IMG/VR virus record: IMGVR_UViG_3300023179_003795
Span: 1-64,000 of that record
Direction: 5' to 3' (one strand)
DNA from: a virus
Taxonomy: Duplodnaviria > Heunggongvirae > Uroviricota > Caudoviricetes
DNA: 64,000 nucleotides
A program made the position numbers and the translations under genes. The notes under the pieces are model-generated. The model had not been told where the DNA came from. It made no database searches and saw only the letters and a list, made by a program, of their open reading frames with translations. This document shows, in pieces, positions 8,512 through 63,340 of the stretch; positions within the stretch are counted from its first letter, which is position 1, and every line of letters starts with the position of its first letter.

Positions 8512-8534
8512 ATGTTTTAAACTATTTATATTCG

Positions 8535-8975: not shown

Positions 8976-8977
8976 TT

Positions 8978-43673: not shown

Positions 43674-43859
43674 TTACTTTAATACTTTAGTTTCTTTATA
43701 TACGGCCTTTTTAATCTGTTCCCTTTTTTTAACACATTCTTTAGTGAATACTTGTCTTTCCCTAAGTTCTTTTACAACACCAGTTTTCTCAAACTTCCAC
43801 TTAAACTTCTTTAAAGCCCTATCTAACCCACCTTCTTTTCTTACATCTATTATTATCAT
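43674..43859 (-). CDS. rpsU: 30S ribosomal protein bS21 homolog (phage-encoded)
   Basis: 61 aa MIIIDVRKEGGLDRALKKFKWKFEKTGVVKELRERQVFTKECVKKREQIKKAVYK, aligning with bacterial bS21 ([42 protein letters not shown]...). Confidence 0.85.
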   Translation of the reverse strand: MIIIDVRKEGGLDRALKKFKWKFEKTGVVKELRERQVFTKECVKKREQIKKAVYKETKVLK

Positions 43860-48680: not shown

Positions 48681-48749
48681 AATTTATAATTTTAATGTTG
48701 TTTTTTTTAATAATACAAAGATAGGTAATTATTTTGATAATACCAAATA

Positions 48750-49109
48750 TTAAAATATTTTAATTTTAGCATCAACTTCCTTTAATTCACCCCAATTACC
48801 CATATAGGTGACACCCCTCACTTTTCTATTGTCAATCCAAATGTATTCATCACCATCTTTACATCTTGGTTTATCCGTAATCAATTGGTGGTATTTGAAG
48901 TTGTGTTCATTCAACCAATCCAAAGTTATTTGTCTATCTTTAGTTTCTCGAGCAGTAAAGAATACTATTGTATTTCCCTCACTATACCACTTATTTGTGG
49001 TTTCCTTAGCATTTAAAAATGGTTTAGCGGTAGCGAATAAATGACTTTGTTCGTTTGGAATATCATCACAGATAGTTCCATCAATATCTATAAGAATAAC
49101 TCTACTCAT
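48750..49109 (-). CDS. HAD-superfamily phosphatase (small, DxDGT type)
   Basis: 119 aa with motif I ILIDIDGTICDD, FFTARE and a C-terminal D-containing block. Size and motifs resemble polynucleotide 3'-phosphatase-like HADs. Confidence 0.55.
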   Translation of the reverse strand: MSRVILIDIDGTICDDIPNEQSHLFATAKPFLNAKETTNKWYSEGNTIVFFTARETKDRQITLDWLNEHNFKYHQLITDKPRCKDGDEYIWIDNRKVRGVTYMGNWGELKEVDAKIKIF

Positions 49110-49891
49110 TACCCAAAATATTTAAATAAATCAATTGCGTTTGAACGTATCTTATTAAGACTTTTTTGTTTAATCTGACGAATACGTTCTTTTGTCAAAT
49201 CAAACTCATCTCCAATCGCTTCTAATGTCATTGGTTCTCCATCTATCCCAAAATACATTTTAATAATGGCTTTTTCTTTATCATCCAATTTAGATAATAG
49301 TTTTTCCAACTCTCCTTTGAGATTATCTTGTCCGTTATTTAATTGATGATCCGGCATTAAAGCGTCATCATCTTCAATTATATCCAATAGTTCATCACCA
49401 TCTTCATTGATAATATCAAATATAGATTGTGTTGTTGGAAACATTTCAACCATTTCTTCATCAGAATCTTTGTTTTCTTTCTTAGCCTTTAAATAGTCAT
49501 TTATCTGATTAACAGGGATACGAATATTTCTTGAATGTTCGTTGATAGATTCAATGATAGATTGTTTAATCCACCATACAGCGTATGATATAAATCTATA
49601 ACCTTTAGTTCTATCAAACTTTTCAATCGCTTTTAATAAACCTAAATTACCTTCCGCAATAAGATCGGATAAAGGTATTCCGTTATTTTGATATGTTTTA
49701 GCGATTGATATAACAAATCTTAGATTTGCTTTAATCAATTCTTCACGGGCTTTATTATCCCCACTTAGAACTCTTTCAGTTAGTTCGGCTTCTTCTTCCT
49801 TTGAAATAACGTCAGCGTATTTTCTTATTTCCTTTAAATAAGAACTAATTTGAGATTGATCAATAAAAAAAGTATTGGCAGTATTTGTCAT
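49109..49891 (-). CDS. Sigma-70 family RNA polymerase sigma factor (regions 2-4; RpoS/SigF-like size)
   Basis: 260 aa with region 2 (LRFVISIAKTYQNNGIPLSDLIAEGNLGLLKAIEKFD), region 3 and a region 4 HTH (MTLEAIGDEFDLTKERIRQIKQKSLNKIR). Has an acidic linker insert. Confidence 0.85.
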   Translation of the reverse strand: MTNTANTFFIDQSQISSYLKEIRKYADVISKEEEAELTERVLSGDNKAREELIKANLRFVISIAKTYQNNGIPLSDLIAEGNLGLLKAIEKFDRTKGYRFISYAVWWIKQSIIESINEHSRNIRIPVNQINDYLKAKKENKDSDEEMVEMFPTTQSIFDIINEDGDELLDIIEDDDALMPDHQLNNGQDNLKGELEKLLSKLDDKEKAIIKMYFGIDGEPMTLEAIGDEFDLTKERIRQIKQKSLNKIRSNAIDLFKYFG

Positions 49892-49943
49892 AAAATGTTG
49901 TTTAATTGTTTAATTGTTTAAATACAAATATAGTAAAAAAAGT

Positions 49944-50378
49944 TTAATAAATCAAATTTTTAATTTTTTCTACGTTTTGGTACTGAGCATAATGGACATA
50001 ATTCTTTAAAGAATCTACTTTAATCCATTTATAAGTGTCAAATTCAGGGGTTTTTACACTACCCTCATAAAAATATGAATTACATTTAATATGTAATTTT
50101 TCAATTGGTGTGTCTGTTATAATTAAAAAAGTTTTAATCTTTTTTTTAGAACTTCTATACATTGTAAAATCAAATTCGTGTTTTTCCAATATATTAAGGT
50201 TTGAAAGGGAAATATTGGTTTCTTCCCATAATTCACGAATAGCACAATCAAAATAACTACTATCACTATCATCTAAATGTCCTTTCGGTATAGACCAAGC
50301 GTTTTGATTTGTTACATGACCAACTAAAACCCTATCAATTTCAGTTGAATATAAAAAAATACCACAAGTAATTACCAT
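49944..50378 (-). CDS. NUDIX hydrolase
   Basis: 144 aa with a Nudix-box-like GHLDDSDSSYFDCAIRELWEETNI (G-x5-[ED]-x7-REUxEE). Confidence 0.6.
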   Translation of the reverse strand: MVITCGIFLYSTEIDRVLVGHVTNQNAWSIPKGHLDDSDSSYFDCAIRELWEETNISLSNLNILEKHEFDFTMYRSSKKKIKTFLIITDTPIEKLHIKCNSYFYEGSVKTPEFDTYKWIKVDSLKNYVHYAQYQNVEKIKNLIY

Positions 50379-50782
50379 TAGTTGAATTTTTTTAAGAATT
50401 CCTTTTCTTCTTTCTTTAGGGAATCCATACCTGTCTTACTAATCTTATCTAAAATTGTATTTAAATCTAAAACAACAGATTCTTCTTTTTGTTTTTTAGG
50501 TGTTTTAGTCTTGGTGTTAAACAAATACTTTAATGTTTCTTCGTCAATTTGTAAAGCAATTTCTTTAAACTGCTCTTTTGGGATAAGAATAAACGGAGAA
50601 TCCGCCTCTTTAATCTTTATTTTAAGGTTATCTATGTTGTCTGTTGATTTAAGGGTTAGTAATATAACACTATCACCCTCAGCCATTTTAACAATTTCAT
50701 CACCCAAAAGAATCGTTAGATCTTCACAAATCTGACGATTATTACCGAATATTATCAAGAAATAATTTATCATATTTTTCAT
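50378..50782 (-). CDS. Hypothetical protein
   Basis: 134 aa ORF; its stop overlaps the NUDIX start. Confidence 0.4.
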   Translation of the reverse strand: MKNMINYFLIIFGNNRQICEDLTILLGDEIVKMAEGDSVILLTLKSTDNIDNLKIKIKEADSPFILIPKEQFKEIALQIDEETLKYLFNTKTKTPKKQKEESVVLDLNTILDKISKTGMDSLKKEEKEFLKKFN

Positions 50783-50864
50783 TTTTAGTTTACAAATATA
50801 ATTATAAATATTTTCAATTCCAAAATTTATTTATTTTTTCCAAAATATTATTATTCTATCGGTT

Positions 50865-51236
50865 ATGAAGATAGGAAAAATATACATAAAATTCAACTTT
50901 TATAAAAAAGAAGATGAAATATCAACAAATGAAGTAATTAAATCCGATAAAACACAATACGGAACACTTACTTTTGACAATACCGGAAAACTTGTTGATT
51001 GGTCAGTAGATAAAGATTTACTTAAACAAATTTGTGATCAAGCAGATAGGGAAAGACACGGTGAAGAACAAGCGGATACATTTAATTTCTGTTGGGAACA
51101 TTCCATTAAAAATAAAACAGATTATTCTGACAATGGGGAAAGATTAGTTGGTAAAATGACAGAATCTTGGTTTAATGAATTAATTAAACTTTCAAATGAA
51201 AAAGACACATCACTTATTATATACTCTTGGGACTAA
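50865..51236 (+). CDS. Hypothetical protein
   Basis: 123 aa plus-strand ORF after a divergent intergenic region. Confidence 0.45.
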   Translation: MKIGKIYIKFNFYKKEDEISTNEVIKSDKTQYGTLTFDNTGKLVDWSVDKDLLKQICDQADRERHGEEQADTFNFCWEHSIKNKTDYSDNGERLVGKMTESWFNELIKLSNEKDTSLIIYSWD

Positions 51237-51523
51237 TGAAATTAGAAATTAAAATTGATAAAGAAATTGTGGATTTCTGTAAATTAAACGAGTTGGATTT
51301 ACCTACCTTTATTTACGATTGTCTTGAAAAGGGGTATATCCAAAATAAATGGGGTAGATCCCCTATGGATTCCATTAAAAAGGATACAAGTGAAATCATC
51401 CAAACACCTAAAAAGAAAGGTGGTAGGAAGAAAAAAGAAGAAACTATATCAGAAATAATTGAACAAAAAAAATCGGAGTCTGTTAAACAAACTCCGATAA
51501 ATGATTTATATGGTGAAGATTAA
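51227..51523 (+). CDS. Hypothetical protein
   Basis: 98 aa, overlapping the previous gene by 10 nt. Confidence 0.4.
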   Translation: MGLMKLEIKIDKEIVDFCKLNELDLPTFIYDCLEKGYIQNKWGRSPMDSIKKDTSEIIQTPKKKGGRKKKEETISEIIEQKKSESVKQTPINDLYGED

Positions 51524-51816
51524 TATTGTTCGTAACGATCTTTTTTAATTGGAAAATCACTATTTATTTTATCCAATTCAAATAAATATTTATTACCATA
51601 TTTTATAATACGATCAATGACATTTTGAGCCACTTCTTTTCTTATTTGAAAATTATCCGGTTTTTTTGGTGGCAAGTTTGATATAGAAAAGTTATTTTTA
51701 CCAATATTTCTTTCAGGTGGCTCAACCGTACTTTTAATTCTTGGGTTTGAGACTTCATTCACTATTTTCTTAACAATATTTGTTAAATCCGATTCTTTTA
51801 GTTTAATTGTTTTCAT
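51520..51816 (-). CDS. Hypothetical protein with a leader-like N-terminus (MKTIKLKESDLTNIVKKIVNEV)
   Basis: 98 aa. The N-terminus is near-identical to that of 8535..8975 (MKKIKLTEQDLTNIVKRVISED). Confidence 0.45.
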   Translation of the reverse strand: MKTIKLKESDLTNIVKKIVNEVSNPRIKSTVEPPERNIGKNNFSISNLPPKKPDNFQIRKEVAQNVIDRIIKYGNKYLFELDKINSDFPIKKDRYEQY

Positions 51817-51885
51817 ATCTTCTTTTTTATTATAAATAGTTACTTTTTCAGTTTCTTTAAAATTATGTTTTATTTTTATAAATAC

Positions 51886-53019
51886 TTAATTTTTAGGGAA
51901 TAATTCATCCAACATACCACGTTTTTTAGCCGCATTATACAATTTACTATTTTTAATTCGTAAATCAGGTATACTTTTATAATCACCTTTTTTAAATTCT
52001 TGTCTTACTAATTCTGGTGTCCAGGATATTATGAGTTTATAAGGGATTAATTCATCCAACATACCACGTTTTTTAGCCACATCATATAAGGCAAAATTTT
52101 TAATTTGTAAATCACCTCTACCTTTATAATCACCTTTTTTAAATTCTTGTCTTATCAATTCAGGTGTCCAAGATTTTATGAGTTTATCAGGTATTAATTC
52201 ATCTAACATATTACGTCTTTTAGCTGCAAGATACAAAGCAATATTTTTAATTTGAAAATCAAGTCTACCTTTATAATCACCTTTTTTAAATTCTTGTCTT
52301 ATCAATTCAGGTGTCCAGTCCGTAGTGAGTTTATTGGGTATTAATTCATCTAACATATCATGTCTTTTAGCTGCATGAAATAATTTATTATTTTTTTCCT
52401 CTAAATCACTTCTACCTTTATAATCACCTTTTTTAAATTCTTGTCTTATCAATTCAGGTGTCCAAGATGTTTGTAAGGTATCAGGAATTAATTCATCTAC
52501 CATACCACGTTTTTTAGCCGCCTGATATAAATTACCATTTTTAATTTTTAAATCACTTCTACTTTTATAATCACCTTTTTTAAATTCTTGTCTTATTAAT
52601 TCTGGTGTCCAATATCTTTGTAAGGTATCAGGAAATACTTGTGTTAATATATCATCAACTTTTTTAGTTAAATTATATTTCTTAGATATCTTACCAGCTA
52701 ATTTATATAATTTTTGATTTTTTTCCTTTAAATCGTTTCTACCTTTATATTTAACCAATTTTCCATTTTCATCTATATAACCATCCAATATTTCTTGTTT
52801 AACTTGTTCCGGTGTCATTTTATCATAAAACAATCTTTTAACATACCAAACTAAACCTTGTTTTCTAGCACTATCATATAATTGACTAAATTTAATTTCA
52901 AATTCATCAATATTATTAACTAATTTAACCGCTTGTTTAATTTCTTTCCACCATAGACTAGGAGCACCTTCATTTAATAAAAGTGAATTAAATTGTTGTT
53001 CTGTTATTATTATTCTCAT
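51886..53019 (-). CDS. Tandem-repeat protein (5 x about 49 aa repeats) sharing the 125-aa N-terminal domain with 21673..22752
   Basis: 377 aa. N-terminus is MRIIITEQQFNSLLLNEGA.... Repeats are IPD.L..SWTPELIRQEFKKGDYKGR.DL.IKN..LY.AAKRRGMLDEL x5. Confidence 0.65.
   Translation of the reverse strand: MRIIITEQQFNSLLLNEGAPSLWWKEIKQAVKLVNNIDEFEIKFSQLYDSARKQGLVWYVKRLFYDKMTPEQVKQEILDGYIDENGKLVKYKGRNDLKEKNQKLYKLAGKISKKYNLTKKVDDILTQVFPDTLQRYWTPELIRQEFKKGDYKSRSDLKIKNGNLYQAAKKRGMVDELIPDTLQTSWTPELIRQEFKKGDYKGRSDLEEKNNKLFHAAKRHDMLDELIPNKLTTDWTPELIRQEFKKGDYKGRLDFQIKNIALYLAAKRRNMLDELIPDKLIKSWTPELIRQEFKKGDYKGRGDLQIKNFALYDVAKKRGMLDELIPYKLIISWTPELVRQEFKKGDYKSIPDLRIKNSKLYNAAKKRGMLDELFPKN
52745..53019 (-). repeat. 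Direct-repeat partner of 22465..22752
   Basis: See the paired feature. Confidence 0.75.
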
Positions 53020-53068
53020 ATTTTTATAAATACTTACTTTTTACTTAGAAATTAGTATTATTTAACTT

Positions 53069-55834
53069 ATGGAAAATAAATATAAATCACCAACAATACG
53101 AGTAGAATGGGAAGATTACCCAGAAAACTTTACAAAGGAAAGAAAACTTAGAGTTAAATCATATTTCCAAAAGAAATATAATACCCCAAAAATATCTATA
53201 ATACTTAAACCAAAAAAAGTTAAACAATCAGAACAAACTGAAATTATATCTGAAAACTTATTTGACCTTAACTACCAAAAGAAACTTATTAAAGAATATG
53301 TTTTACTTAATGGTAATAACATCGATTCGGATTTTATTGAACGATTAGATGATAAAGTAAATGAAAGATTAGTCACCAAAAAAGACCTTTCATTCAAAAT
53401 AAATGAATGTAAAATTAAATCAATTCATTTTTCTAATTTCCTTTCATATGGAGATAATAACCAAATAAACTTTGAGAAAATACCAGGTATTACCATTATT
53501 AATTCAAACCCAGGAAATGCCGCAGGTAAAACTACGTTATTAAATGCTATAGTATTCCTCCTATTTGGTTCAACATTCTCCACTAAAAAGAATGAAGAAA
53601 TATTTAACCTATACACAGATAAAAATGAAGTAAAAGTATCAGGTGTAATTCAAATTGACGATCACGATTTTAGATTGGATAGAACACTCACTAGAAAACC
53701 TAAAAAGAAAGGTTCTGCTGAATGGTCTTATTCATCTGTATTTAATTTCTTTAAACTAAATCCTGATGGAACAGAAGTGAATGAAACTGAAGAACAAAGA
53801 AAAGAAACTGAAAAAGTCCTTAAACAAAATATTGGGGATATTGATGATTTTCTTTTAACAATTATCGCTACTTCAGATAACTTAGAAGATTTAATCCACG
53901 CAGGTGCTACTGATAGAGGTAAGATATTTTCAAGATTTATGGGTTTAGATATTTTACAAGAAAAAGGTGATATCGGTAAAACACTTTATACCGAATACCA
54001 AAAAGGTCTTAAATCTAATCAATATAATACTGAACAACTCAAAGGTGAAATTGATTTACATAAAGAAGAAATAACCAAAATAAGGGAAGATATTTTAGAT
54101 AGACAAACCAAAATTGATACAATTAAATTAGATATAATTGATTTAAATACCCAAAAGGATAATTTACTTAAAGATATAATTAAAATCGATCCAGAGGTGG
54201 TTAAATTGTCTTATACAGCACTTTTAGGTGATAAATCTTTATCCGAAACAACATTATTAGAAAAGGAAACACAATATTTAAATCTTAAAACTAATATTGA
54301 TGGATTAGAACACCATTATGAAGAAACCAAATATAATTTTTTATTAGAAAAGGAAAAAGAACTACTATCTATCCTTTCAAAATATAAATCTAACTTAGAT
54401 ACAATTAAGGAAGAAAATACAAAATTAGAACTTAAATTATCTGAAAAGGATTTAATTGATAAAACAATTATTGATTTAGAAAATCAGATTAAAGAAAAAG
54501 AAAGTTCAATTTTAGAACATATGTTTAATCAGGATGTGTTAGATAACATTATAACTGAACTTGGTGTTATTACCAATGAAAGGGCTAATAATAATAAAGA
54601 TATTCTATCCACATTAGATTTAATTAAACAATTAGAAGAAGGTGAATTTTGTCCAACCTGTAAAAGAAAATTAGAAGATGTAGATCATACAGATGAAATC
54701 AACCAATTAAAACAAAAAGTAAAAGATTTAAAGGTGAAAAATGAAACAAATATGTTACTTTTAACCGAACTAAATGGTAAGATTGATATTCAAAAAGGTG
54801 AAAAACTTAAATTGGATAATAACTTATTAATTGAAAGGGGTATTGAAAAATTAAAGTCGTCTATTGATATTAATAAAACCAAATTGGAATCAATGACTGA
54901 AGCTCAAAATACTATTGAAACAAATAAAGGTAGAATAAATAAAGGTGAAGAATTAATTAAAACCAAACAATCTGAATTAGATATCATATTAGAAGATATT
55001 AAATACCAGAAAGAACAAAAAGATATATTGGACACCAAATTAAATAATGAGATTTTACTTTCAAGGATTGAGTTAGATGTAGAAAGATTAAAGAATAAGT
55101 TAAATACAATATTATCAAACATTCAAAAGTACGAAGATAATGTGGTGAATATTGAAAATAACAAAACAATTGAAACAAAGACAAATGTATTACAATTTGA
55201 CATTAATACTAAGTCAGATGAAATGAATGGTTATAATGAAGATGTTGTGGTATTCCAAGTTAATATTGAGAATATTGATAAAACTATTTTGGATAAGGAA
55301 AACACAATTAAAACAATTACTATTGAAGAAAAATATATTAAAACATTTGATTTCTATATTGAAATGTTCGGTAAGAATGGTATTGTTAAATTGATTTTAA
55401 GAGATAAAATACCTTATATCAATGATAGGTTAAATGATTTATTGGGTGATTTAACAGATTTCTCAGTTAATATCCAATTAAACGACAAAAAAGAGTTGGA
55501 TTTTGTTATGACTGAAAATAACACCGGTTTGAATAAGTTTTTATACACCGGTTCAGGGTTTGAAAGGACAATGGGGTCGTTAGCGTTAAGACATATATTA
55601 GTGGAAATAAATTGTTTACCAAAATTCAATATGTTATTTTTGGATGAGATTTTGGGTAAGGTATCACATAATAATTACGATAAAGTGGAAATGTTATTGA
55701 GTAAAATTAAAGATACTTATGATAATGTATTATTTATAACTCACATTGAAGAAACTCGTAATTGGGGTGAATTTGTAATTCAAGTTCTTAAAGAAGATAA
55801 CATATCAAGGATTGATTTAGTGGGGATGAATTAA
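53069..55834 (+). CDS. SbcC/Rad50-family ATPase (T4 gp46-like) with a CxxC zinc hook
   Basis: 921 aa with a Walker A NPGNAAGKTTLLNAIVFLLFG (after a roughly 130-aa N-terminal extension), a long coiled coil, a central EGEFCPTCKRKLE hook, a signature/Q-loop region and a Walker B/D-loop MLFLDEILGKV ... LFITH. Confidence 0.85.
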   Translation: MENKYKSPTIRVEWEDYPENFTKERKLRVKSYFQKKYNTPKISIILKPKKVKQSEQTEIISENLFDLNYQKKLIKEYVLLNGNNIDSDFIERLDDKVNERLVTKKDLSFKINECKIKSIHFSNFLSYGDNNQINFEKIPGITIINSNPGNAAGKTTLLNAIVFLLFGSTFSTKKNEEIFNLYTDKNEVKVSGVIQIDDHDFRLDRTLTRKPKKKGSAEWSYSSVFNFFKLNPDGTEVNETEEQRKETEKVLKQNIGDIDDFLLTIIATSDNLEDLIHAGATDRGKIFSRFMGLDILQEKGDIGKTLYTEYQKGLKSNQYNTEQLKGEIDLHKEEITKIREDILDRQTKIDTIKLDIIDLNTQKDNLLKDIIKIDPEVVKLSYTALLGDKSLSETTLLEKETQYLNLKTNIDGLEHHYEETKYNFLLEKEKELLSILSKYKSNLDTIKEENTKLELKLSEKDLIDKTIIDLENQIKEKESSILEHMFNQDVLDNIITELGVITNERANNNKDILSTLDLIKQLEEGEFCPTCKRKLEDVDHTDEINQLKQKVKDLKVKNETNMLLLTELNGKIDIQKGEKLKLDNNLLIERGIEKLKSSIDINKTKLESMTEAQNTIETNKGRINKGEELIKTKQSELDIILEDIKYQKEQKDILDTKLNNEILLSRIELDVERLKNKLNTILSNIQKYEDNVVNIENNKTIETKTNVLQFDINTKSDEMNGYNEDVVVFQVNIENIDKTILDKENTIKTITIEEKYIKTFDFYIEMFGKNGIVKLILRDKIPYINDRLNDLLGDLTDFSVNIQLNDKKELDFVMTENNTGLNKFLYTGSGFERTMGSLALRHILVEINCLPKFNMLFLDEILGKVSHNNYDKVEMLLSKIKDTYDNVLFITHIEETRNWGEFVIQVLKEDNISRIDLVGMN

Positions 55835-55835
55835 A

Positions 55836-55868
55836 AAGGAAAAGGGACTTAAAGTCCCTTTTTTTATT
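55836..55868. terminator. Bidirectional terminator (aaagggact-taa-agtcccttt + T-run)
   Basis: 9-bp stem and 3-nt loop between convergent genes 53069..55834(+) and 55870..56388(-). Confidence 0.6.
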
Positions 55869-55869
55869 T

Positions 55870-56388
55870 TTATATATTGGATGACAAAATAATATTATCA
55901 GACTTATAACTTATATCATATGTTAAATTGTATTTCTTAATTAGATTAAAATTAATCAGAACACTATCTCTAGTTTGTTTATTATTGGACATTTTATCCC
56001 TTTTTAGTGACTGTTCATTACTATACATAGTTTCAAAATTATCGTCATAATATATCGTTACCGACAATAATAACAATCCATCACAACTAAATAATGAACA
56101 ACACGTATTTTTTTTATCATATGTCATGTCTTTATCAACCCTACCAAAAGTACCTATTGGTGTAGATGAATTAACTTTATATTTACCACCCTTATTAATT
56201 TTTAAAGTACTACTTTTCAACGAGAATTCATTACTATCAGGTCCATGAATCCTATGACCCCAACTATTAGATAAACCCAACCTCTCCAATTGAATCTTTT
56301 CCCTCCATTTATAATTGTGGAAATCGGTTTGAGGTATAATACTAAACACGTGTTTTATTTTTTCTTCGTATGATAAGTTATCTGTCAT
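55870..56388 (-). CDS. Hypothetical protein
   Basis: 172 aa ORF. Confidence 0.45.
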   Translation of the reverse strand: MTDNLSYEEKIKHVFSIIPQTDFHNYKWREKIQLERLGLSNSWGHRIHGPDSNEFSLKSSTLKINKGGKYKVNSSTPIGTFGRVDKDMTYDKKNTCCSLFSCDGLLLLSVTIYYDDNFETMYSNEQSLKRDKMSNNKQTRDSVLINFNLIKKYNLTYDISYKSDNIILSSNI

Positions 56389-56496
56389 ATTTAATTTATG
56401 TATTTTTATTGTTAAATAGTAAACATTTTTTCCCGATAAAACAAAAAAAAGAATAATTTCTTACTCTTTTTTTTAAATTATTTAACAATCAATTAA

Positions 56497-57783
56497 TTAT
56501 TTCTTTTCATCGTATTTAGGATTCATATACTTGCAGCTAATCCTATTATTATTCTTAGTTCTTATAACCACCCCTTCAATTATTCTACCAACAGATTCTT
56601 CTTTAATGAAGATTTCTTTACAAGTATTTTCCAATTCTTCAATTGAGTTTGGTTTAATCCATACAGATTTGGTATATGGTAATCCTGTTTCTATACCCAC
56701 AGATTCTAAGTTATGAAATTGTCTGTAATGATTTCTTACTGAAAATCCGGTTTCCAATCCATCCACACCAAACAAAACAATTGTTTGTTTTTGTTTAGCA
56801 TCAGAATTTAATTTATTACCAGAACCTTTCAATCCTTCACCCATTAATTCACCCCTGAAAGCCAATTCAACATCGTATTTCTTACAATATTCAACCAACT
56901 TTTCAACATAACCTTTATCGTTAGCAACATCAATCCAACTATCCCTTACTTCAGTTGTAATAGGGGTTAAATTTTCTTTAGCCCATTCATCGGTAATAAA
57001 TGTTCTACTATCATCATTAAACCAACCTTTTTCTTTTGTTTCAGGGTGAATGTATTTGTGAAACTCACTTCCAAGATGATCAACATAAAGTGAAGTATAT
57101 GCTTGCTCAAGTTTCTTTTCTTGGCTTCTTGAACAAATTCCGTGATAAAACTCACCATCAGCATTTTTCTTTACATACATAGTCCAACTCGATCCATCAC
57201 CTTTTAAACATAAACCAAATTCTTCACCATCTTCAATAGCACCTTTCACATAACCAACTTTATTAAAAAAATTTTCTTCATCTGTGCGATACATAAATGA
57301 AGGGAAATCACCAGCAACCATACCTGAAGCACCTGTTTCAGGTTCTTCATATTTTACAATACCCAATACTTCAGATAAATCACTTACCTTATCAATTGTG
57401 GTATGTAAAAAAGTCTCTACTTCACTTACAGGTAATAAAATACCGAATGAATAAATTGGATCTGAAGTATTATCAAAGCTAAAGTTAAACTTAACCGCTC
57501 TAATACGACTATTCTTACCCAATTTAGATTTCTTAGGATCACCATTTGGTTTGGTAAAACTATCAAATAAAGCAATATCACTAACACAATAATCCGGTTG
57601 AATATAACAGGCTTTATCCCCTATCTTATATAGATCTTTTTGTGATATTAAATGATATCCACAAGGACTACCATCGTCATACTTAAAATGAACCACTTCA
57701 ATTGCATTTGCTGGCTCACCATTCTTATAGATTACAATTTTTTCAGTAATCTCTACAATTTCTACACTTTTTATTTCTTTCAT
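56497..57783 (-). CDS. Putative ATP-dependent polynucleotide ligase (Rnl-like nucleotidyltransferase) with an N-terminal extension
   Basis: 428 aa. Candidate motif I is LCLKGDGSSW (KxDG), motif III AFRGELMGEG, motif IV IIEGVVIR and motif V ISCKYMNPKY, in ligase order. Confidence 0.5.
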   Translation of the reverse strand: MKEIKSVEIVEITEKIVIYKNGEPANAIEVVHFKYDDGSPCGYHLISQKDLYKIGDKACYIQPDYCVSDIALFDSFTKPNGDPKKSKLGKNSRIRAVKFNFSFDNTSDPIYSFGILLPVSEVETFLHTTIDKVSDLSEVLGIVKYEEPETGASGMVAGDFPSFMYRTDEENFFNKVGYVKGAIEDGEEFGLCLKGDGSSWTMYVKKNADGEFYHGICSRSQEKKLEQAYTSLYVDHLGSEFHKYIHPETKEKGWFNDDSRTFITDEWAKENLTPITTEVRDSWIDVANDKGYVEKLVEYCKKYDVELAFRGELMGEGLKGSGNKLNSDAKQKQTIVLFGVDGLETGFSVRNHYRQFHNLESVGIETGLPYTKSVWIKPNSIEELENTCKEIFIKEESVGRIIEGVVIRTKNNNRISCKYMNPKYDEKK

Positions 57784-58526
57784 TATTTTATTTCTTTTAA
57801 TCTTTCTTCACTATATTTTACTTGTTCTAAACTTATCTCAGAACCAATGTAATTCATATTAAGGTTTTTACAAGCCAAAGCCGTTGTTCCTGTCCCCATA
57901 AATGGATCATACACCAAATTACCTTCCTTTGAATAGATTGATAATAACTTCTCACATAGTTCAGTTGAATATGTTGCTTTATTTAAGTTATTACTACCAT
58001 CATTATTCTTTGCGGTTATAAAATTATCAATTATTTCATAATATTTTTGTCCTTTTGGTGATGTTTTAACCACTTTCTTATAACAATTAAAGGTTTTTAA
58101 CTCATCCTTCCTACAAAAAATATAAATAAACTCAACAATCCTATTTAATCTATTATAAGATGCTGGATGTGGAATACTATTGGATTTTTTCCAAATAATA
58201 GTATCGGCAACCATAAAACTAGTGTTTTGTATAATCGCCGATACCAATAAATAAGGTAGTGATGGGGTTTCAATTGAATATGAAAAGTTATATATTACCA
58301 CACCATTAGGTTTCAATACCTTATCAAATGAATTAAATATATTTAATGACCATTTGATGTATTCATCTTCACTTTTCCAATCATTGTACGTGTCATACCT
58401 CATCTGTTTATCCGCATAACCACCCTTCCTTTTTGTCATATTATATGGTGGTGATGTTAATATCACATCTATTGGATTAATTTTACTCATAGTCAATAAA
58501 CAATCCTCATTATAAATCTTATTCAT
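57783..58526 (-). CDS. DNA methyltransferase, beta-class (SPPY ... DPFMGTGTT; N4-C or N6-A)
   Basis: Motif IV ILTSPPY lies near the N-terminus and motif I VYDPFMGTGTTALA near the C-terminus. The track ORF extends to 58610, but the start at 58526 (MNKIYNEDCLLTMSKI) fits the conserved DCL...L N-terminal MTase block. Confidence 0.7.
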   Translation of the reverse strand: MNKIYNEDCLLTMSKINPIDVILTSPPYNMTKRKGGYADKQMRYDTYNDWKSEDEYIKWSLNIFNSFDKVLKPNGVVIYNFSYSIETPSLPYLLVSAIIQNTSFMVADTIIWKKSNSIPHPASYNRLNRIVEFIYIFCRKDELKTFNCYKKVVKTSPKGQKYYEIIDNFITAKNNDGSNNLNKATYSTELCEKLLSIYSKEGNLVYDPFMGTGTTALACKNLNMNYIGSEISLEQVKYSEERLKEIK

Positions 58527-59199
58527 TAAAAAAATCAAATTTACCGTCAATATATTGAACAACCACAGGTTTATTAACTGGTTCATATTCCTCATTACAA
58601 GTGCTCGCATTTACGAATAATATACCTTCATATTCTTTATAACCGTACCCACAATGAATGTGACCAAAAACGTGGAGTTTAGGTTTTACAACCATAACCC
58701 TATTAAGTAAATCCTGACATCCAATATTAGTTAAATCCCAAGGCATATAATCACACATATATTTTGGAGGTCCGTGACTTAATAAAACATCAGTATCTTC
58801 AGGGATTAAAGCCCACTTTTCAGCACATTCAACACCTCTTTTCAAATTAAACGCCCAATTATAAAACTCAGGTTGATACGGAGTTCCATAAAACTTCATA
58901 CCATCAATCACTACTTCACTATCTTCTAAATAATGAACATTCTTCGGTAATCCTTCAATTAATTCATCAACCCAAGATGCTTTATCTTCAAATGATAATT
59001 CGTGATTACCCGCAATGAATATAATATGTTCAAAAATCTCCGATTGTTTGGTTATCCATTTAAAAAAGTTCTTCACCTCACTTTGTTTGCCCATACCTGA
59101 AAAATCACCTGAATGAACAAGAATATTACCTTCAGGTAATACAATCTTATTATGCTTATTATGTGTATCAGATATCAACACAATTTTTTTGTTTTCCAT
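58519..59199 (-). CDS. Calcineurin-like metallophosphoesterase
   Basis: 226 aa with ISDTHNKH, HSGDF, GNHE, SHGPP and GHIHCGYG, the canonical MPP motif order. Confidence 0.75.
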   Translation of the reverse strand: MENKKIVLISDTHNKHNKIVLPEGNILVHSGDFSGMGKQSEVKNFFKWITKQSEIFEHIIFIAGNHELSFEDKASWVDELIEGLPKNVHYLEDSEVVIDGMKFYGTPYQPEFYNWAFNLKRGVECAEKWALIPEDTDVLLSHGPPKYMCDYMPWDLTNIGCQDLLNRVMVVKPKLHVFGHIHCGYGYKEYEGILFVNASTCNEEYEPVNKPVVVQYIDGKFDFFNE

Positions 59200-59201
59200 T
59201 T

Positions 59202-59501
59202 TTATTCCACCCTCAATTTTTTAATATATTTCCAATACTTTCTAACAGGATCTCTTGTTAGTTCGTGTAAAAAAGTAAGGTATTTAATATGATGTGTTGA
59301 AAATAATTCCTCCCTTGTTGGGTTATTATTCCACCTCATATATTCTTCTTTTGTCGCTGGTTCAATCTTTGATAAAACCATTTCTTTTAATTTGTAATAA
59401 CCAGAACATTGTTCATCAATTGGGAGTTTTGAACAGTATAAACCATCCAAATACTTTTCACAAAACGCATCAAATGGTGTTGGTTTCCAAAGAGTTCTCA
59501 T
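59202..59501 (-). CDS. Hypothetical protein
   Basis: 99 aa ORF. Confidence 0.4.
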   Translation of the reverse strand: MRTLWKPTPFDAFCEKYLDGLYCSKLPIDEQCSGYYKLKEMVLSKIEPATKEEYMRWNNNPTREELFSTHHIKYLTFLHELTRDPVRKYWKYIKKLRVE

Positions 59502-59503
59502 TT

Positions 59504-59704
59504 TTATTTCTTATTAAAAGGGTTATTTTTTCTAAGGTTATAAATTATGTATTGATTATAAAGCCAAGGTCCAACCCACATTGATCCAACAATACCACAT
59601 AGAAAAATCAACCATATTGGATAAATAAATAATCCAATAAAATGAGGGATTGTCAAAAGAACATACCCCAATAATCCAAATAAAACTTTATATAGTAAAT
59701 TCAT
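59504..59704 (-). CDS. Small membrane protein (2 TM)
   Basis: 66 aa of hydrophobic helices. Confidence 0.35.
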   Translation of the reverse strand: MNLLYKVLFGLLGYVLLTIPHFIGLFIYPIWLIFLCGIVGSMWVGPWLYNQYIIYNLRKNNPFNKK

Positions 59705-59739
59705 AATACAAAAATAATAAAAAAATGGAATAAAACAAA

Positions 59740-60795
59740 TTATTCCACTTCTTTACCCCAAAAAGGTTTTTGATATGTTGGTCTTAACATTCTCCAAATG
59801 GTATCAGAGTAATCTTTTCCATCATACAATAAAAACAATATTGGTTGATATTGTCTTGGTTGTTCTTTAACCCACATAGCGAATTCTTTCTTACCCATAT
59901 CATCAAAAGTAAATCCAGGTCTTTTATCCTTAAAATCTTCAAATAATAAATGAACAGTTTCTTCTATTTTATGGTATTCATCAACTAAACCATTCTTAAT
60001 ACCCTTAACCCAAGAATCAAATTCGTCAGGTGTCCTATCTAAAAAATAATTAAAGTTTGTTTTAGACTTTAAACACTTCCAAATATCCAAATTAGAGAAA
60101 TTAGTTAATAAACGATGCAACCTAACATACTCATCACCCTTAATTTTTACTCTAACACCTGAATTACGAAACTTAATTACAAAACCTTCTTGATTATCAC
60201 CAATCATAGATTTCATTTCTTTAATATTGGTTAAACCATCATATTTTTTAACCCTTGTTAAACCATCAAAAAAATAGTAATCAATATTCAATTCAGTTGT
60301 TCCCACAAAAGCACCGGTTAATACAACATCTTCTTCAGAGTAATGACATACGATCCTATTTTCAGGATATATGATTTCAAATATATAAGTAATTGTATGG
60401 TATAATGTTATATGTCCATATTTCCTATCAAATATTTCTTTTCCTTTTATTGCTTGTTCTGAAATAAATGAACCCTTAGATGCAAATATCCATTCACCTT
60501 TATAGTTGAATAGAATACCTAATGAACCGTCCAATTTTTCATACACATCAAACTCTTCATTCGGTATGTCTTGTAATTCATCAAGGTTAAAAAACTTATT
60601 GAATGATTTAGCGATTAATACACCCCTATCATCTAATACAGTTCCACGCATAGCAAGAGTAATATCATCCCACTTCTTTTCAAACTGACAATCACGAGAG
60701 TAGTTATATATTTTCAATGGCAGAGTTGGATGTGATTGACATTCTAACAACCCATCTTTAATATACATATTTAATATGTCTAAATTATATTTCAT
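59740..60795 (-). CDS. RNA ligase (Rnl2-like, PF09414-type)
   Basis: 351 aa with motif I VYEKLDGSLGILF (KxDGS), motif IV EGFVIKF, motif V VRVKIKGDEY and a C-terminal helical domain. Confidence 0.6.
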   Translation of the reverse strand: MKYNLDILNMYIKDGLLECQSHPTLPLKIYNYSRDCQFEKKWDDITLAMRGTVLDDRGVLIAKSFNKFFNLDELQDIPNEEFDVYEKLDGSLGILFNYKGEWIFASKGSFISEQAIKGKEIFDRKYGHITLYHTITYIFEIIYPENRIVCHYSEEDVVLTGAFVGTTELNIDYYFFDGLTRVKKYDGLTNIKEMKSMIGDNQEGFVIKFRNSGVRVKIKGDEYVRLHRLLTNFSNLDIWKCLKSKTNFNYFLDRTPDEFDSWVKGIKNGLVDEYHKIEETVHLLFEDFKDKRPGFTFDDMGKKEFAMWVKEQPRQYQPILFLLYDGKDYSDTIWRMLRPTYQKPFWGKEVE

Positions 60796-60800
60796 TTTTT

Positions 60801-61025
60801 TTAATCTAATCTTTCACACCAATCAACCGTTTTACTTTTTAAGTTATGAACAATATACACACCTCTACGATGCTTACATAACTTATATATCGTTTCTTCT
60901 TCATTTGATTTTCTCGGCATCCTATATAAATTAAATCTACTAATATTCAAATCAGTTAATCTCAATCCTTTAATATAAGCCCCATCCATTCCACCCCTAA
61001 AATCACCCTGTTTAACATCTATCAT
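60801..61025 (-). CDS. Hypothetical protein
   Basis: 74 aa ORF. Confidence 0.4.
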   Translation of the reverse strand: MIDVKQGDFRGGMDGAYIKGLRLTDLNISRFNLYRMPRKSNEEETIYKLCKHRRGVYIVHNLKSKTVDWCERLD

Positions 61026-61028
61026 TTT

Positions 61029-61640
61029 CTATTCCTCACTAAATAATTTTCCCAAATAATCAACCATAGGTTGTAAATAATTTACATCCTCAACCCCATC
61101 CCAATCAATAGGAACACCATTCCCTAATTCAACTTTAAACCCAAGTCTTGATATAAACTCAGGGTTTTCTTCTTTATATTTCTTAAACATTGATGATTTT
61201 GTCATCTTTGAATATTGAACATTTGCTATCCTATCACATAATTTAACAAATACAGCACCTTTAGTGTTTCTAATACCTTCATAGTATTTGTCATTAGCCC
61301 TTTCTTTACGTGTTTTACCCTTTTCATTGGAAACCGCATAAACAATATCAGCAACAAATACACCAAGTCTATTTCTAACATCATTATACGATGTTCTGGT
61401 GTCCTCAATCAAATCGTGGGCTGCCGTAGCGCAAAGACAAGTTTGTAGTGTAATATCAACCACCTCCCAACAATTTTTATATTCTTCTTTTTCCTCAGTT
61501 ATTAAATTTTTAGGTAAAAGATGTTTAAAATCTTCATACACCTGTAATGTCATTTTTAAGTGAAATTTGTAGGGGATATATCCATCATAATAATGATTAG
61601 TATCACTATGTTGTTTAAAAATCCATTCTAAGTTATTCAT
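61029..61640 (-). CDS. HD-domain phosphohydrolase
   Basis: 203 aa with ...CATAAHDLIEDT... (HD motif) and an upstream His. Confidence 0.5.
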   Translation of the reverse strand: MNNLEWIFKQHSDTNHYYDGYIPYKFHLKMTLQVYEDFKHLLPKNLITEEKEEYKNCWEVVDITLQTCLCATAAHDLIEDTRTSYNDVRNRLGVFVADIVYAVSNEKGKTRKERANDKYYEGIRNTKGAVFVKLCDRIANVQYSKMTKSSMFKKYKEENPEFISRLGFKVELGNGVPIDWDGVEDVNYLQPMVDYLGKLFSEE

Positions 61641-61671
61641 AATTTTTATATTAGATTAATACAAACCTTTT

Positions 61672-62235
61672 TTAAGTTTTACCATATGTATAATCAGATA
61701 CAGCCTTTTTAACTGTTCTAATAACTCTATCTTTATCTTTACCAAAAATAAGAGTAAATAATTTATCACCTGAAATGTATAATATCTCCTGATCATTGTG
61801 ATTAATTTTAACACATCTACCTTCAGGATTCTTATCATTAATCACACCATAAACACATTTATAGTCAGGATTACTCTCTTTGAATGTTGAAAGTTCATCA
61901 TACTTTTTGCTTTTTGATGACGAATTATCTGTATTGTATCTATTCTTTAATTCAATAATTATTTTTCTTCTATTATTCATTAAATCAAATCCAAATTCAT
62001 ACCCTTCTTTTAACCTTATAAAGTTTTTGTATTCCCCAATGACAGATTCCCATATTTTACCATATTTCATCTGTCTTTGTTTAACTTTTAAAACATTAAA
62101 ATGAAGTTCATTCTCCAAGAATGGATCCAAAATGTCATAAGTAATGTCTGACTTTTCTGGTGTATCAAGGATTTCAAGTGTGATTTCCTTAATCCTATTA
62201 AAAAAATCTTTATTTTCATATTTTTTTCTTATCAT
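61672..62235 (-). CDS. Hypothetical protein
   Basis: 187 aa ORF. Confidence 0.45.
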   Translation of the reverse strand: MIRKKYENKDFFNRIKEITLEILDTPEKSDITYDILDPFLENELHFNVLKVKQRQMKYGKIWESVIGEYKNFIRLKEGYEFGFDLMNNRRKIIIELKNRYNTDNSSSKSKKYDELSTFKESNPDYKCVYGVINDKNPEGRCVKINHNDQEILYISGDKLFTLIFGKDKDRVIRTVKKAVSDYTYGKT

Positions 62236-62271
62236 ATTACAAAGGTAATATATTTTAATTAAACCACCAAA

Positions 62272-62721
62272 TTAAATTAATTTTAATTCAAATCTATTTT
62301 TCATTATTTCCAACTTATCATCAGGAACTCCGTGAATATTCTTACCTCCGTGGCGATTTTCCACAATTATAGAGAATACTTGGTAGTCGTGTTCTTTAGC
62401 CATATCATAATAATCCTTCATTTCCCATTCTTGAGTAAAGGTATTGGATACTACAATAGGTGAATGTTCGTATTTCATAAGAAATTCAACTTCTTCCTTA
62501 CACCAAATATGAGCCTCTTTTATTTTTGAAGGTTCAAACTTATAATTACCATCCCCATCAACAAAATACATATCAGCCTCTTTGTGACAATAATCCTTAT
62601 TGACTAATAATTTAGCAAATGTCGATTTACCATTCCCCGGCAATCCTCTGATTAAAAATAGTTTTTTCATAATGATACAAAGATAATAAAAAAATTTATA
62701 AAAAAAAACTTGTATTGTCAA
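62272..62721 (-). CDS. P-loop kinase resembling the T4 polynucleotide kinase (Pnk) 5'-kinase domain
   Basis: 149 aa. MKKLFLIRGLPGNGKSTFAKLL aligns with T4 Pnkp [22 protein letters not shown], and it has a downstream VVSNTF block (T4: IISDTNL). There is no fused phosphatase domain. Confidence 0.6.
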   Translation of the reverse strand: MTIQVFFYKFFYYLCIIMKKLFLIRGLPGNGKSTFAKLLVNKDYCHKEADMYFVDGDGNYKFEPSKIKEAHIWCKEEVEFLMKYEHSPIVVSNTFTQEWEMKDYYDMAKEHDYQVFSIIVENRHGGKNIHGVPDDKLEIMKNRFELKLI

Positions 62722-62739
62722 ATTAAAGTATTATATTTG
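62710..62739 (+). promoter_or_regulatory. Bacteroidetes-type promoter (cTTG-N19-TATATTTG) upstream of 62765..63340
   Basis: TTG at 62710..62712, a 19-nt spacer, then TAtaTTTG at 62732..62739, with the ATG 25 nt downstream. Confidence 0.35.
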
Positions 62740-62764
62740 TTCCACAATTATAAACAATACCACT

Positions 62765-63340
62765 ATGACTAAGAAAAAAGAAGTAATCATCCCTGAAATT
62801 ATTAACAATGTAATCAGTAAATGTGATGATTTAATTAATCAAGCAATGGAACGTGAAAACAAAAGATTCCAATCTTTAATTACAAGATTTCAAGAATGGC
62901 ACTCTAAACAAGAACCAAACACTAAATTTATGTATGGTCCAATTATACCATTTTTACAACAAATATCCGGTAAATATAAAGTTGGTGGGACTGTTGAGTA
63001 TTATTCAATAAGTTATTCATTCCCTGAAAATAGAAAAAGTAGTGTGTTAGTTTATAGTCAAGAATCATTTGATAAATGGTTTAATAACTACAAAGAAGAT
63101 TATAAAATCAATCAGATTTGGAAACTTACCCAATCAATGATGAAACACCTAACCGATAAGGATAGTTTAAGTTCTGACGTAAGAATTAGTAAAACACCAA
63201 AAGGTTTTTGTGTTGATTTCCAATACTTAAATGATGGACAATTATTCAATTACCAAACAGACGCAATTGAAGCGGGTGGTCATAATATTCAATGTTTCCA
63301 TTACCGATACATAACCAAAATAAAAAAAGTGATTAATTAG
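62765..63340 (+). CDS. Hypothetical protein
   Basis: 191 aa plus-strand ORF. Confidence 0.45.
   Translation: MTKKKEVIIPEIINNVISKCDDLINQAMERENKRFQSLITRFQEWHSKQEPNTKFMYGPIIPFLQQISGKYKVGGTVEYYSISYSFPENRKSSVLVYSQESFDKWFNNYKEDYKINQIWKLTQSMMKHLTDKDSLSSDVRISKTPKGFCVDFQYLNDGQLFNYQTDAIEAGGHNIQCFHYRYITKIKKVIN

Follow-up and report, generated by a model that had tools for sequence, protein, structure and literature searches.

A putative RNA break-repair gene string with a stand-alone kinase and two RNA ligases in a Caudoviricetes genome fragment

A putative RNA repair string

The DNA analysed here is a stretch of 64,000 nucleotides (nt) from a tailed-phage record (Caudoviricetes; IMG/VR IMGVR_UViG_3300023179_003795, positions 1 to 64,000), and this whole stretch is referred to as the window. 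Between positions 55870 and 62670 it carries a string of genes that, in our judgement, is probably a phage module for the repair of broken RNA, with a stand-alone polynucleotide-kinase-like protein and an Rnl1-family RNA ligase as its core. The core itself, taken as an RNA end-healing kinase and two sealing ligases, appears to be real and is well supported by the comparative evidence given below.

A preliminary description of this DNA was built on six open reading frames (ORFs): two RNA ligases, a P-loop kinase, a small HAD phosphatase, an HD hydrolase and a metallophosphoesterase. All six are present on the minus strand, at or near the positions reported, and each of the proteins has family matches far beyond chance. 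The motifs quoted for them are likewise found, namely YEKLDGS, EGFVIKF and KIKGDEY in the ligase of 351 amino acids (aa), LKGDGSS, FRGELMGE, EGVVIR and KYMNPKY in the 428-aa ligase, MKKLFLIRGLPGNGKST in the P-loop protein, and IDIDGT in the HAD protein. The layout of these genes had been called dispersed, which is an overstatement: the HAD gene aside, all of them lie in one co-directional string on the minus strand, which consists of 12 tightly packed ORFs with gaps mostly of 0–36 nt and one of 108 nt. The named genes, read down the string from 62670, are the kinase, an Eco47II-like nuclease, the HD protein, g74, the 351-aa ligase (Rnl1) and g66, and these are followed, as far as 55870, by g99, the metallophosphoesterase, a DNA methyltransferase, the 428-aa ligase (Rnl5) and g172. 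The coordinates are listed in Table 1.

From the family and fold assignments, the gene linkage and the gene fusions, we infer the substrates, the order of the steps, the enzyme that heals the 3' end and the kind of host nuclease countered. The kinase would phosphorylate the 5'-OH of the cut RNA, a phosphoesterase would open or remove the 3' phosphate, and Rnl1 would then reseal single-stranded loop breaks, with Rnl5 sealing nicks in duplex regions, which is the role of Rnl2 in T4. The MPPED2-like phosphodiesterase may stand in for the phosphoesterase of the common cassette (see below) as a 2',3'-cyclic phosphodiesterase. The RelA/SpoT-type hydrolase would be an accessory that may break down alarmones or take (pyro)phosphates off the 3' end of tRNA, and the HAD protein at 48750 would lie outside the module.

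The kinase and its Rnl1-family partner

Linkage of the two core genes was assessed in 31 fetched loci that carry the kinase (fetched loci and contigs are designated by L-numbers), the ORFs of which were classed using the proteins of the window together with those of two cultured phages. In 21 of the 31 loci, which correspond to about 12 of 18 non-redundant arrangements, the kinase is either fused to an Rnl1-family ligase or has an Rnl1-family gene no more than 10 kb away, in most cases within about 4 kb. This gene is found on either side of the kinase, and the ligases are only 35–49% identical across the loci. As a control, 80 viral loci centred on an MPPED2-like gene were used, and Rnl1 is present in only one of these (Fisher p = 4e-14, or 3e-10 with redundancy removed).

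The same two genes are also joined in single proteins. For example, one ORF in L029 encodes the kinase followed by Rnl1, and among the closest representatives of the kinase there are five such fusions, two in the order kinase-Rnl1 (P0132 and P0232) and three in the order Rnl1-kinase (P0164, P0165 and P0231). Five further representatives are fusions of an HD domain with the kinase, in both orders (P0140, P0143, P0145, P0192 and P0252), and P0141 has two kinase domains and one CNPase domain. In the family phrog_8238 (737 positions), the kinase occupies positions 1–109 and Rnl1 positions 439–710. The fusions seen in the kinase family are thus with Rnl1, HD and CNPase domains, and none is with a HAD domain. 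Because of the recurrent adjacency and the fusions, which together constitute strong comparative evidence, the kinase is predicted to prepare RNA 5' ends for Rnl1.

The P-loop protein had been likened to the kinase domain of T4 Pnkp without the fused phosphatase, and both points stand: the protein is only 132 aa long, like most of its homologues, and it is of the polynucleotide-kinase type by profile and by fold, not a nucleoside or thymidylate kinase. Its start has to be moved from the TTG at 62721 to the ATG at 62670, since the listed homologues are mostly 131–133 aa long and begin with MK. A TTGACA hexamer found in a promoter scan begins at 62721, and the TTG there is probably upstream non-coding sequence. 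With the single sequence, nothing significant was found in the PDB (T4 Pnk at E = 0.88). With a profile of 16 members of the kinase family, T4 Pnk (1ly1, 4.9e-5) ranks first in the PDB, with a full-length alignment; below it come 1ltq, PSTK (a tRNA kinase), Pnkp1 of Capnocytophaga and the kinase of Clostridium thermocellum Pnkp (CthPnk). A Foldseek search with the AlphaFold2 (AF2) model likewise gave T4 Pnk (1ly1, 7.6e-6) at the top, followed by CthPnk (4jt2, 2.7e-5). The invariant D33 is aligned with D35 of T4 Pnk, and V115-P116 with V131-P132; in T4 Pnk, D35 is the general base, V131-P132 are nucleobase-pocket residues, and Arg38 binds the acceptor's 3'-phosphate (PMC2831316). As judged from its sequence, the 132-aa protein is of the polynucleotide-kinase type and belongs to a distinct family, not being an orthologue of T4 Pnkp.

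Counted at E ≤ 1e-3, this very large family has 8,477 representative clusters. Matches to the stand-alone kinase occur in 626 deposited phage records, among them those of rV5-like, PAK_P1-like, Campylobacter and Vibrio phages, and the annotations in these records vary (polynucleotide kinase, ATPase, NEDD4-binding-protein-2-like), polynucleotide kinase beside an RNA ligase and a phosphoesterase being frequent. The family may resemble the eukaryotic N4BP2/N4BP2L kinases, and one GenBank label reads 'putative NEDD4-binding protein 2'. In the literature searched, no biochemical characterisation of the stand-alone family was found.

The kinase is far more conserved than the partner ligase encoded in the same contigs: between the window and L001, L005–L008 and others, the identities are 78% for the kinase and 41–42% for the ligase. 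Near-invariant blocks of the kinase are VSNTFTQEWEM and ENRHGGxNxHGVP. Because of this difference in identity, either an unusually strong constraint on the kinase or a recent exchange of its gene is suggested.

The 351-aa ligase had been labelled Rnl2-like, a label that has to be replaced by Rnl1. The protein matches PF09511 (RNA_lig_T4_1) with 47.6 bits (2.4e-12), above the cutoff of 28.3, and phrog_562, which is the PHROG family of T4 gp63, with 1e-59 over residues 15–343; the match to TIGR02308 (5e-12, 45.6 bits) is below the equivalog cutoff of 242 bits. Its sole significant PDB match is T4 Rnl1 (2c5u, 1.8e-9). In the HMMER alignment with 2c5u, KLDGS is placed on KEDGS (motif I), EGFVIKF on EGYVAVM (motif IV) and KIKGDEY on KIKSDWY (motif V). 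The PDB alignment ends at residue 236, and the C-terminal 110 residues, the part to be compared with the tRNA-specificity domain of T4 Rnl1, are covered by the PHROG profile only. No match to PF09414 is found at E ≤ 0.01, and at E ≤ 1 the PDB search gave neither Rnl2 nor REL1 chains.

The kinase and Rnl1 are commonly accompanied by a third gene. A small metallophosphoesterase of a distinct family adjoins the kinase in 21 of the 31 loci, usually directly upstream; its closest PDB match is the uncharacterised Aquifex protein aq_1665 (1xm7, 1.5e-13), and in cultured phages it is annotated as phosphoesterase or phosphodiesterase. The three genes are found together in Escherichia phage JeffSchatz (bas55_0211-0213: RNA ligase, polynucleotide kinase and phosphoesterase) and in Pseudomonas phage vB_PseuGesM_254 (phosphodiesterase, RNA ligase and polynucleotide kinase). 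In jumbo phages, ATP-dependent RNA ligases with separate polynucleotide kinases and HAD, 2H, calcineurin-like or HD phosphoesterases have been described (PMC7824862). The split, unfused arrangement, which had been presented as unusual, is the norm for this kinase family, which mostly has Rnl1 and a phosphoesterase next to it as genes of their own. Many cultured phages already carry annotations for the kinase-ligase-phosphoesterase cassette, and the window is an ordinary member of this group.

In L001, a phage contig of 294 kb, a homologue of the Thoeris inhibitor Tad6 (PF25188, 1e-16) is encoded at 8515–9249, between the cassette phosphoesterase and the kinase, and a protein with a cREC_REC domain is encoded a few kb upstream.

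The Rnl5-family ligase

The 428-aa protein had been described as a more divergent ligase. It is indeed a ligase by fold, both ligases carry the adenylyltransferase motifs, and it can be assigned specifically to the Rnl5 family. The protein matches NgrRnl (5cot) with 5.6e-13, with LKGDGSS aligned with K170 of NgrRnl in VKLDGSS, and it matches phrog_968 with 4e-37. Against TIGR02306, the family model of DRB0094, residues 42–424 are aligned on positions 27–338 of the 341-position profile (5.5e-13), with a score of 48.5 bits that is below the equivalog cutoff of 151. The AF2 model is of high confidence (predicted local distance difference test score, pLDDT, 90) and has the NgrRnl fold: Foldseek matches NgrRnl with 1e-19 over both domains, with a template-modelling (TM) score of 0.77–0.79 over the whole 336–340-aa target, and the next-best match (8e-6) is 14 orders of magnitude worse. 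Among 32 homologues, K194/D196/G197, R310/G311/E312, E403/G404 and K418 (motifs I, III, IV and V) are invariant.

Members of the Rnl5 clade have a clade-specific N-terminal domain and a nucleotidyltransferase (NTase) domain and end right after motif V, with no C-terminal appendage (PMC4408790). The 428-aa protein has this layout, with an N-domain and an NTase domain and with its end six residues past motif V. It is about 90 residues longer than NgrRnl, much of the excess being a beta-rich insert between motifs I and III. The characterised Rnl5 enzymes seal duplex nicks with an RNA 3'-OH strand, and their physiological role has been called uncharted (PMC4408790, PMC5397189).

An Rnl5 gene joins the kinase cassette in three lineages, i.e. 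the clade of the window (the window, L002, L004 and L036), L005–8, and L023; within the first of these it was not detected in L036. This occurrence fits a division of labour between a loop-sealing and a nick-sealing ligase.

The Rnl5 gene of the window is intact. In the metagenomic relative L004 (6415–9157) a split intein divides it: one ORF encodes the N-terminal piece, ending ...TDEDN|CFEENQ..., the other the C-terminal piece, beginning ...NLLVHN|CMNKVGY..., and between the halves there is a free-standing ORF for a 347-aa endonuclease-like protein (DUF7487). Production of Rnl5 in L004 would need protein trans-splicing.

Healing of the 3' end

The metallophosphoesterase of the window is an MPPED2-like enzyme, different from that of the common cassette. 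The metal-binding motifs DxH, GD, GNHE and GHxH are found in the alignment as SDTHNKH, SGDF, GNHE and GHIH. In all four members of the window clade its gene adjoins g99-g66-Rnl1, with gaps of 0–35 nt. The enzymes of the MPPED family hydrolyse only diesters, with a preference for 2',3'-cAMP, and do not hydrolyse monoesters (PMC10547211). It had been proposed that either the metallophosphoesterase or the HD protein might contribute a 2',3'-cyclic phosphodiesterase; for the former, the biochemistry of the family fits (PMC10547211), and the latter is an alarmone hydrolase of the RelA/SpoT type. By analogy with its family, the MPPED2-like enzyme may plausibly act as a 2',3'-cyclic phosphodiesterase and would be the most likely substitute for the cassette phosphoesterase, its membership of the pathway being uncertain.

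The small alarmone hydrolase has the HD...ED motif in AAHDLIEDT, and its match to the Pfam family HD_4 (8.6e-5, 22.8 bits) is below the cutoff of 27.2. Its gene is found only in the window, L002 and L004, and was not detected in L036 or in the other kinase loci. Some small alarmone hydrolases remove the pyrophosphate added by toxSAS at the CCA end of tRNA, an activity that the authors liken to the 3'-phosphatase of T4 Pnk (bioRxiv 10.1101/2021.04.30.441581). The HD domain that is fused to the kinase in other phages was considered as a counterpart of this protein and rejected: the fused type is different (HPEG...FHDxGK, PF01966), and phmmer gave no match between them.

Several observations weigh against the reading of the string as a repair module. 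No cassette phosphoesterase was found in the window by tblastn with three members of the family (E ≤ 0.01). Among the 80 control loci, the neighbours of the MPPED2-like gene include Rnl1 in one and the kinase in three, so that there is no general link with either, and in three contigs (L012/L081, L021/L038 and L018/L040) the MPPED2-like gene lies far from a complete cassette. Because of this lack of general linkage and the coexistence with complete cassettes, the argument for a repair role of the MPPED2-like enzyme comes from its adjacency in one clade; a general replacement of the cassette phosphoesterase by this gene, suggested at first by its apparent occurrence only where that phosphoesterase is missing, is rejected in view of the control loci and the three contigs, and a clade-specific replacement is kept as a possibility. 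Moreover, as diesterases with no action on monoesters, MPPED enzymes would leave a 3'- or 2'-phosphate behind, and Pfam scans of 20 further ORFs of the window gave no Tpt1, 2H, RtcB, RlaP or CCA-adding gene. The statement in the preliminary description that every activity of the T4-type pathway is supplied goes too far, as no 3'-phosphomonoesterase was identified in the window. There is also no tRNA gene in the 64 kb. In the kinase, the C-terminal 27 residues of the AF2 model (106–132, the lid) are of low confidence (pLDDT 76.8 for the model), and, by our own residue count, the nearly invariant F36 sits at the position of Arg38 of T4 Pnk and N76 at that of Asp85. T4 Rnl1 also has a role in tail-fibre attachment, which may hold for the 351-aa homologue as well.

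In a narrower explanation, which we regard as possible but unlikely, only the kinase and Rnl1, perhaps with Rnl5, form the pathway. The remaining enzymes would then serve counter-defence or takeover independently of it, sharing no more than the accessory region, and act on small nucleotides, the MPPED2-like enzyme on cyclic-nucleotide signals, the RelA/SpoT-type hydrolase on (p)ppGpp or (p)ppApp, and the Nudix (see below) and HAD proteins on other metabolites, and the 3' ends would be healed by an enzyme of the host or one encoded outside the window. It is favoured by the abundance of MPPED2-like genes in viral contigs (355 relatives), where they are almost never beside a ligase or the kinase, by the absence of the hydrolase, Rnl5 and HAD genes from L036, and by the presence of a methyltransferase and a restriction-enzyme homologue in variable slots of the string. 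In addition, small alarmone hydrolases are known alarmone degraders (bioRxiv 10.1101/2021.04.30.441581), and phage calcineurin-like phosphodiesterases have been predicted to counter cyclic-nucleotide signalling (PMC7824862). However, the adjacency of g99, g66, Rnl1 and the phosphodiesterase is kept throughout the clade with almost no spacing, the MPPED preference for 2',3'-cyclic substrates matches the chemistry of cut RNA ends (PMC10547211), and the cassette phosphoesterase is absent from the window. The broader repair module is the reading that we retain.

An extension of the repair module in the opposite direction is also conceivable, and we regard it as doubtful. The string would then be a combined operon for the reversal of tRNA damage, with each enzyme perhaps reversing its own kind of host attack on tRNA: cuts in the anticodon loop would fall to the kinase, Rnl1 and the MPPED2-type enzyme, nicks in the stems to Rnl5, and the RelA/SpoT-type hydrolase would strip the 3'-CCA pyrophosphate left by defences of the toxSAS/CapRel type. 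If this were true, the MPPED family would gain its first physiological substrate, i.e. RNA 2',3'-cyclic phosphate ends, and Rnl5 would gain a defined role.

The HAD protein and its operon

The small HAD phosphatase had been counted as the equivalent of the Pnkp phosphatase, which would make the set a split T4-type pathway, with this protein as the 3'-phosphatase beside the kinase and the two ligases, directed against anticodon nucleases of the PrrC/RloC type. There are some data for this: the DxDGT motif is present, weak matches are found to Pnkp phosphatase models (PF25109 HAD_PNKP, 22.6 bits, 1.2e-4; phrog_505, 1.5e-5; phrog_415, 8e-11), tblastn matches of 1e-4 to 1e-6 are obtained with Pnkp genes in phages of Proteus, Enterococcus, Gordonia and Ochrobactrum, and stand-alone HAD phosphatases have been noted in the RNA repair of jumbo phages (PMC7824862). 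However, the PF25109 score is below the gathering cutoff of 27.6, and the matches to phrog_1238 and to the capsule-biosynthesis phosphatase model TIGR01689 are stronger, the best phage homologues being HAD proteins in heptose/carbohydrate gene clusters of cyanophages. By sequence comparison, sugar phosphatases appear to be as close to the protein as Pnkp phosphatases are, or closer, and phosphatases of the capsule/heptose type are at least as close. Its gene is the last of a string g134-Nudix-sigma70-HAD, 7.4 kb from the nearest repair gene, a context that is kept in L032. In L036 it was not detected, the sigma and ClpB genes leaving no room between them, and in none of the 31 kinase loci is it within 10 kb of the kinase. 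We consider this explanation very unlikely.

In the same operon, the Nudix hydrolase (49944–50378, minus strand) has a weak likeness to the RNA pyrophosphohydrolase RppH (1e-7, below the cutoff). Its gene is directly upstream of the sigma-70 gene (49109–49891, minus strand) and of the HAD gene, and the order beside the sigma gene is kept in L032 and L036.

T4 Pnk acts on DNA as well as on RNA. That the kinase and Rnl5 serve the repair or replication of DNA or RNA-DNA hybrids, by healing 5'-OH ends and sealing nicks with a ribonucleotide on the 3' side, has in our estimate hardly any probability: Rnl5 does seal duplex nicks with a 3'-OH RNA strand, loss of DraRnl does sensitise Deinococcus to radiation (PMC4408790, PMC5397189), and the string abuts an SbcC-like gene in a window that also encodes UvdE and an exonuclease, but the recurrent partner of the kinase, by adjacency and by fusion, is Rnl1, which seals single-stranded RNA, its other fusion partners are RNA-end phosphoesterases (HD and CNPase), and Rnl5 is dispensable in the clade, being absent from L036.

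Other features of the string and the window

Table 1. Positions of the repair string genes and associated features in the window.
Feature	Position	Strand	Basis or context
Small stand-alone HAD phosphatase, 119 aa, probably outside the module	48750..49109	-	DxDGT; phrog_1238 1e-16; PDB 1xpj 3e-5; TIGR01689
Bidirectional terminator-like hairpin	55837..55865	.	13-bp stem, then T run; between SbcC-like gene (+) and g172 (-); closes the minus-strand string
Rnl5-family (DraRnl/NgrRnl-type) nick-sealing RNA ligase, 428 aa	56497..57783	-	5cot; TIGR02306; phrog_968; AF2/Foldseek
N6/N4 DNA methyltransferase, variable slot	57783..58526	-	PF01555 1.3e-40
MPPED2-like class III binuclear metallophosphodiesterase, 226 aa	58519..59199	-	3rl4 2.2e-56 over nearly the whole protein; PF00149 1e-10
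g99, conserved small protein between phosphodiesterase and Rnl1	59202..59501	-	No Pfam/PHROG match; position kept in L002, L004, L036
g66, small hydrophobic protein	59504..59704	-	No PHROG match; position kept in L002, L004, L036
Rnl1-family ATP-dependent RNA ligase (T4 gp63 type), 351 aa	59740..60795	-	PF09511; phrog_562; TIGR02308; 2c5u
g74, small protein immediately upstream of Rnl1	60801..61025	-	No PHROG match; conserved in L002, L004, L036
RelA/SpoT-type small alarmone hydrolase (HD domain), 203 aa, putative accessory	61029..61640	-	6yvc 8.4e-10; 6z3n 1.1e-9; MESH1 3.3e-4; phrog_990 1.4e-18
Eco47II-like restriction endonuclease homologue, variable insertion between kinase and alarmone hydrolase	61672..62235	-	PF09553 1.8e-13
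Polynucleotide-kinase-like P-loop protein, stand-alone, 132 aa	62272..62670	-	AAA_33 2e-8; phrog_2071 2e-42

In the promoter scan, 53 promoter-like sites were found, against 54.9 in shuffled sequences, a total not above chance; therefore, no start of an operon can be claimed from it.

Two slots of the string are variable. The methyltransferase, which probably starts at M29 of the listed ORF and is probably outside the RNA pathway, is replaced in L002 and L004 by an unrelated methyltransferase of the D12 class, and the slot of the Eco47II-like nuclease is occupied in these two contigs by four small ORFs. In the window, the genes for the nuclease and the methyltransferase are 3 kb apart inside the repair string. 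In the window there are 17 copies of the Eco47II site (GGNCC) where 52 ± 7 are expected, a strong depletion, and all 17 are GGWCC.

The window as a whole is DNA of a large phage with a low G+C content (28%), and its phage genes encode a large terminase, a portal protein, an endolysin, a sigma-70 factor, a ClpB-like ATPase, an SbcC-like ATPase and PhoH. The terminase has about 28% identity to terminases of uncultured huge phages, Microcystis phages and Flavobacterium phages. A megablast search of positions 48000–63000 against the phage collection gave no match, i.e. no close nucleotide relative among the deposited phage genomes.

Several other genes of the window were recorded, all on the minus strand. 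A 61-aa ORF at 43674–43859 resembles ribosomal protein bS21, and an identical gene in L032 is flagged as PF01165 (Ribosomal_S21); its product is accordingly predicted to be a phage-encoded ribosomal protein. In a 391-aa protein (27518–28693) there is a match to DruA, a domain of the Druantia anti-phage system (PF14236, 6e-13), which is unexpected in a phage genome. The UV-damage endonuclease UvdE (28720–29646, 7e-54) and PhoH (17558–18244, 1e-59) are also encoded, and a 377-aa protein (51886–53019) consists of about five tandem repeats of about 48 aa (…WTPELIRQEFKKGDYKGRSDL…).

Comparison with known systems

RNA repair by phages is the classic answer to host anticodon nucleases, and only the enzymes of T4 have been studied in depth. 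The window resembles the anti-PrrC pathway of T4 (Pnkp and Rnl1, with Rnl2) in having an Rnl1-family ligase, another ligase for nick sealing and a kinase that is of the PNK type by its fold, its P-loop and its general-base Asp, and it would have the same presumed purpose, namely the reversal of host RNA cleavage. Unlike that of T4, the kinase of the window is a stand-alone protein of 132 aa with no HAD phosphatase, and its residue in the place of Arg38 is Phe; Rnl5 is found instead of Rnl2 as the other ligase, there is no convincing HAD 3'-phosphatase, and the genes are clustered.

There is also a likeness to the three-gene cassette of JeffSchatz and vB_PseuGesM_254, which is found in cultured and metagenomic myoviruses. 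The kinase is of the same family (49–52% identity), the ligase is of the same family (about 31%), and the genes are adjacent and unfused. In contrast to this cassette, the ligase of the window is of a longer, 351-aa subtype, and the cassette phosphoesterase is missing, with the MPPED2-like enzyme, Rnl5 and the small alarmone hydrolase present instead.

Pnkp of Clostridium thermocellum also combines a P-loop kinase, an adenylyltransferase ligase and a binuclear metallophosphoesterase that acts as a 2',3'-cyclic phosphodiesterase (PMC2190708). However, it is one fused polypeptide with a phosphoesterase of the lambda-phosphatase type, a ligase of the Rnl4 type and Hen1 as a partner, whereas the genes of the window are separate, the phosphoesterase is of the MPPED2 type, the ligases belong to the Rnl1 and Rnl5 families, and Hen1 was not seen. 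Similarly, the tRNA ligase Trl1 of fungi and plants (ligase-kinase-cyclic phosphodiesterase) and the proteins with a CNPase-type kinase and a 2H domain unite an Rnl1-related ligase, a P-loop RNA kinase and a cyclic phosphodiesterase that leaves a phosphomonoester (PMC6379707). Trl1 has a 2H phosphodiesterase and relies on Tpt1 for the 2'-phosphate, in contrast to the window, in the scanned ORFs of which neither 2H nor Tpt1 was found. Finally, the Rnl5 protein shares with DraRnl and NgrRnl the N-domain and NTase domain, the motif I KxDG and the end at motif V, and differs from them in its additional length of about 90 residues, in its sub-cutoff match to TIGR02306, and in being set in a phage repair cluster.

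The particulars of the window are the lack of the cassette phosphoesterase, the MPPED2-type diesterase beside the ligase, the inclusion of Rnl5 and the alarmone hydrolase in the string, and the methyltransferase and Eco47II-like nuclease in variable slots. With these particulars it offers a test bed for asking which enzyme heals the 3' ends and what roles Rnl5 and MPPED enzymes have in vivo. It is no new kind of system but one more, slightly rearranged, example of a known cassette.

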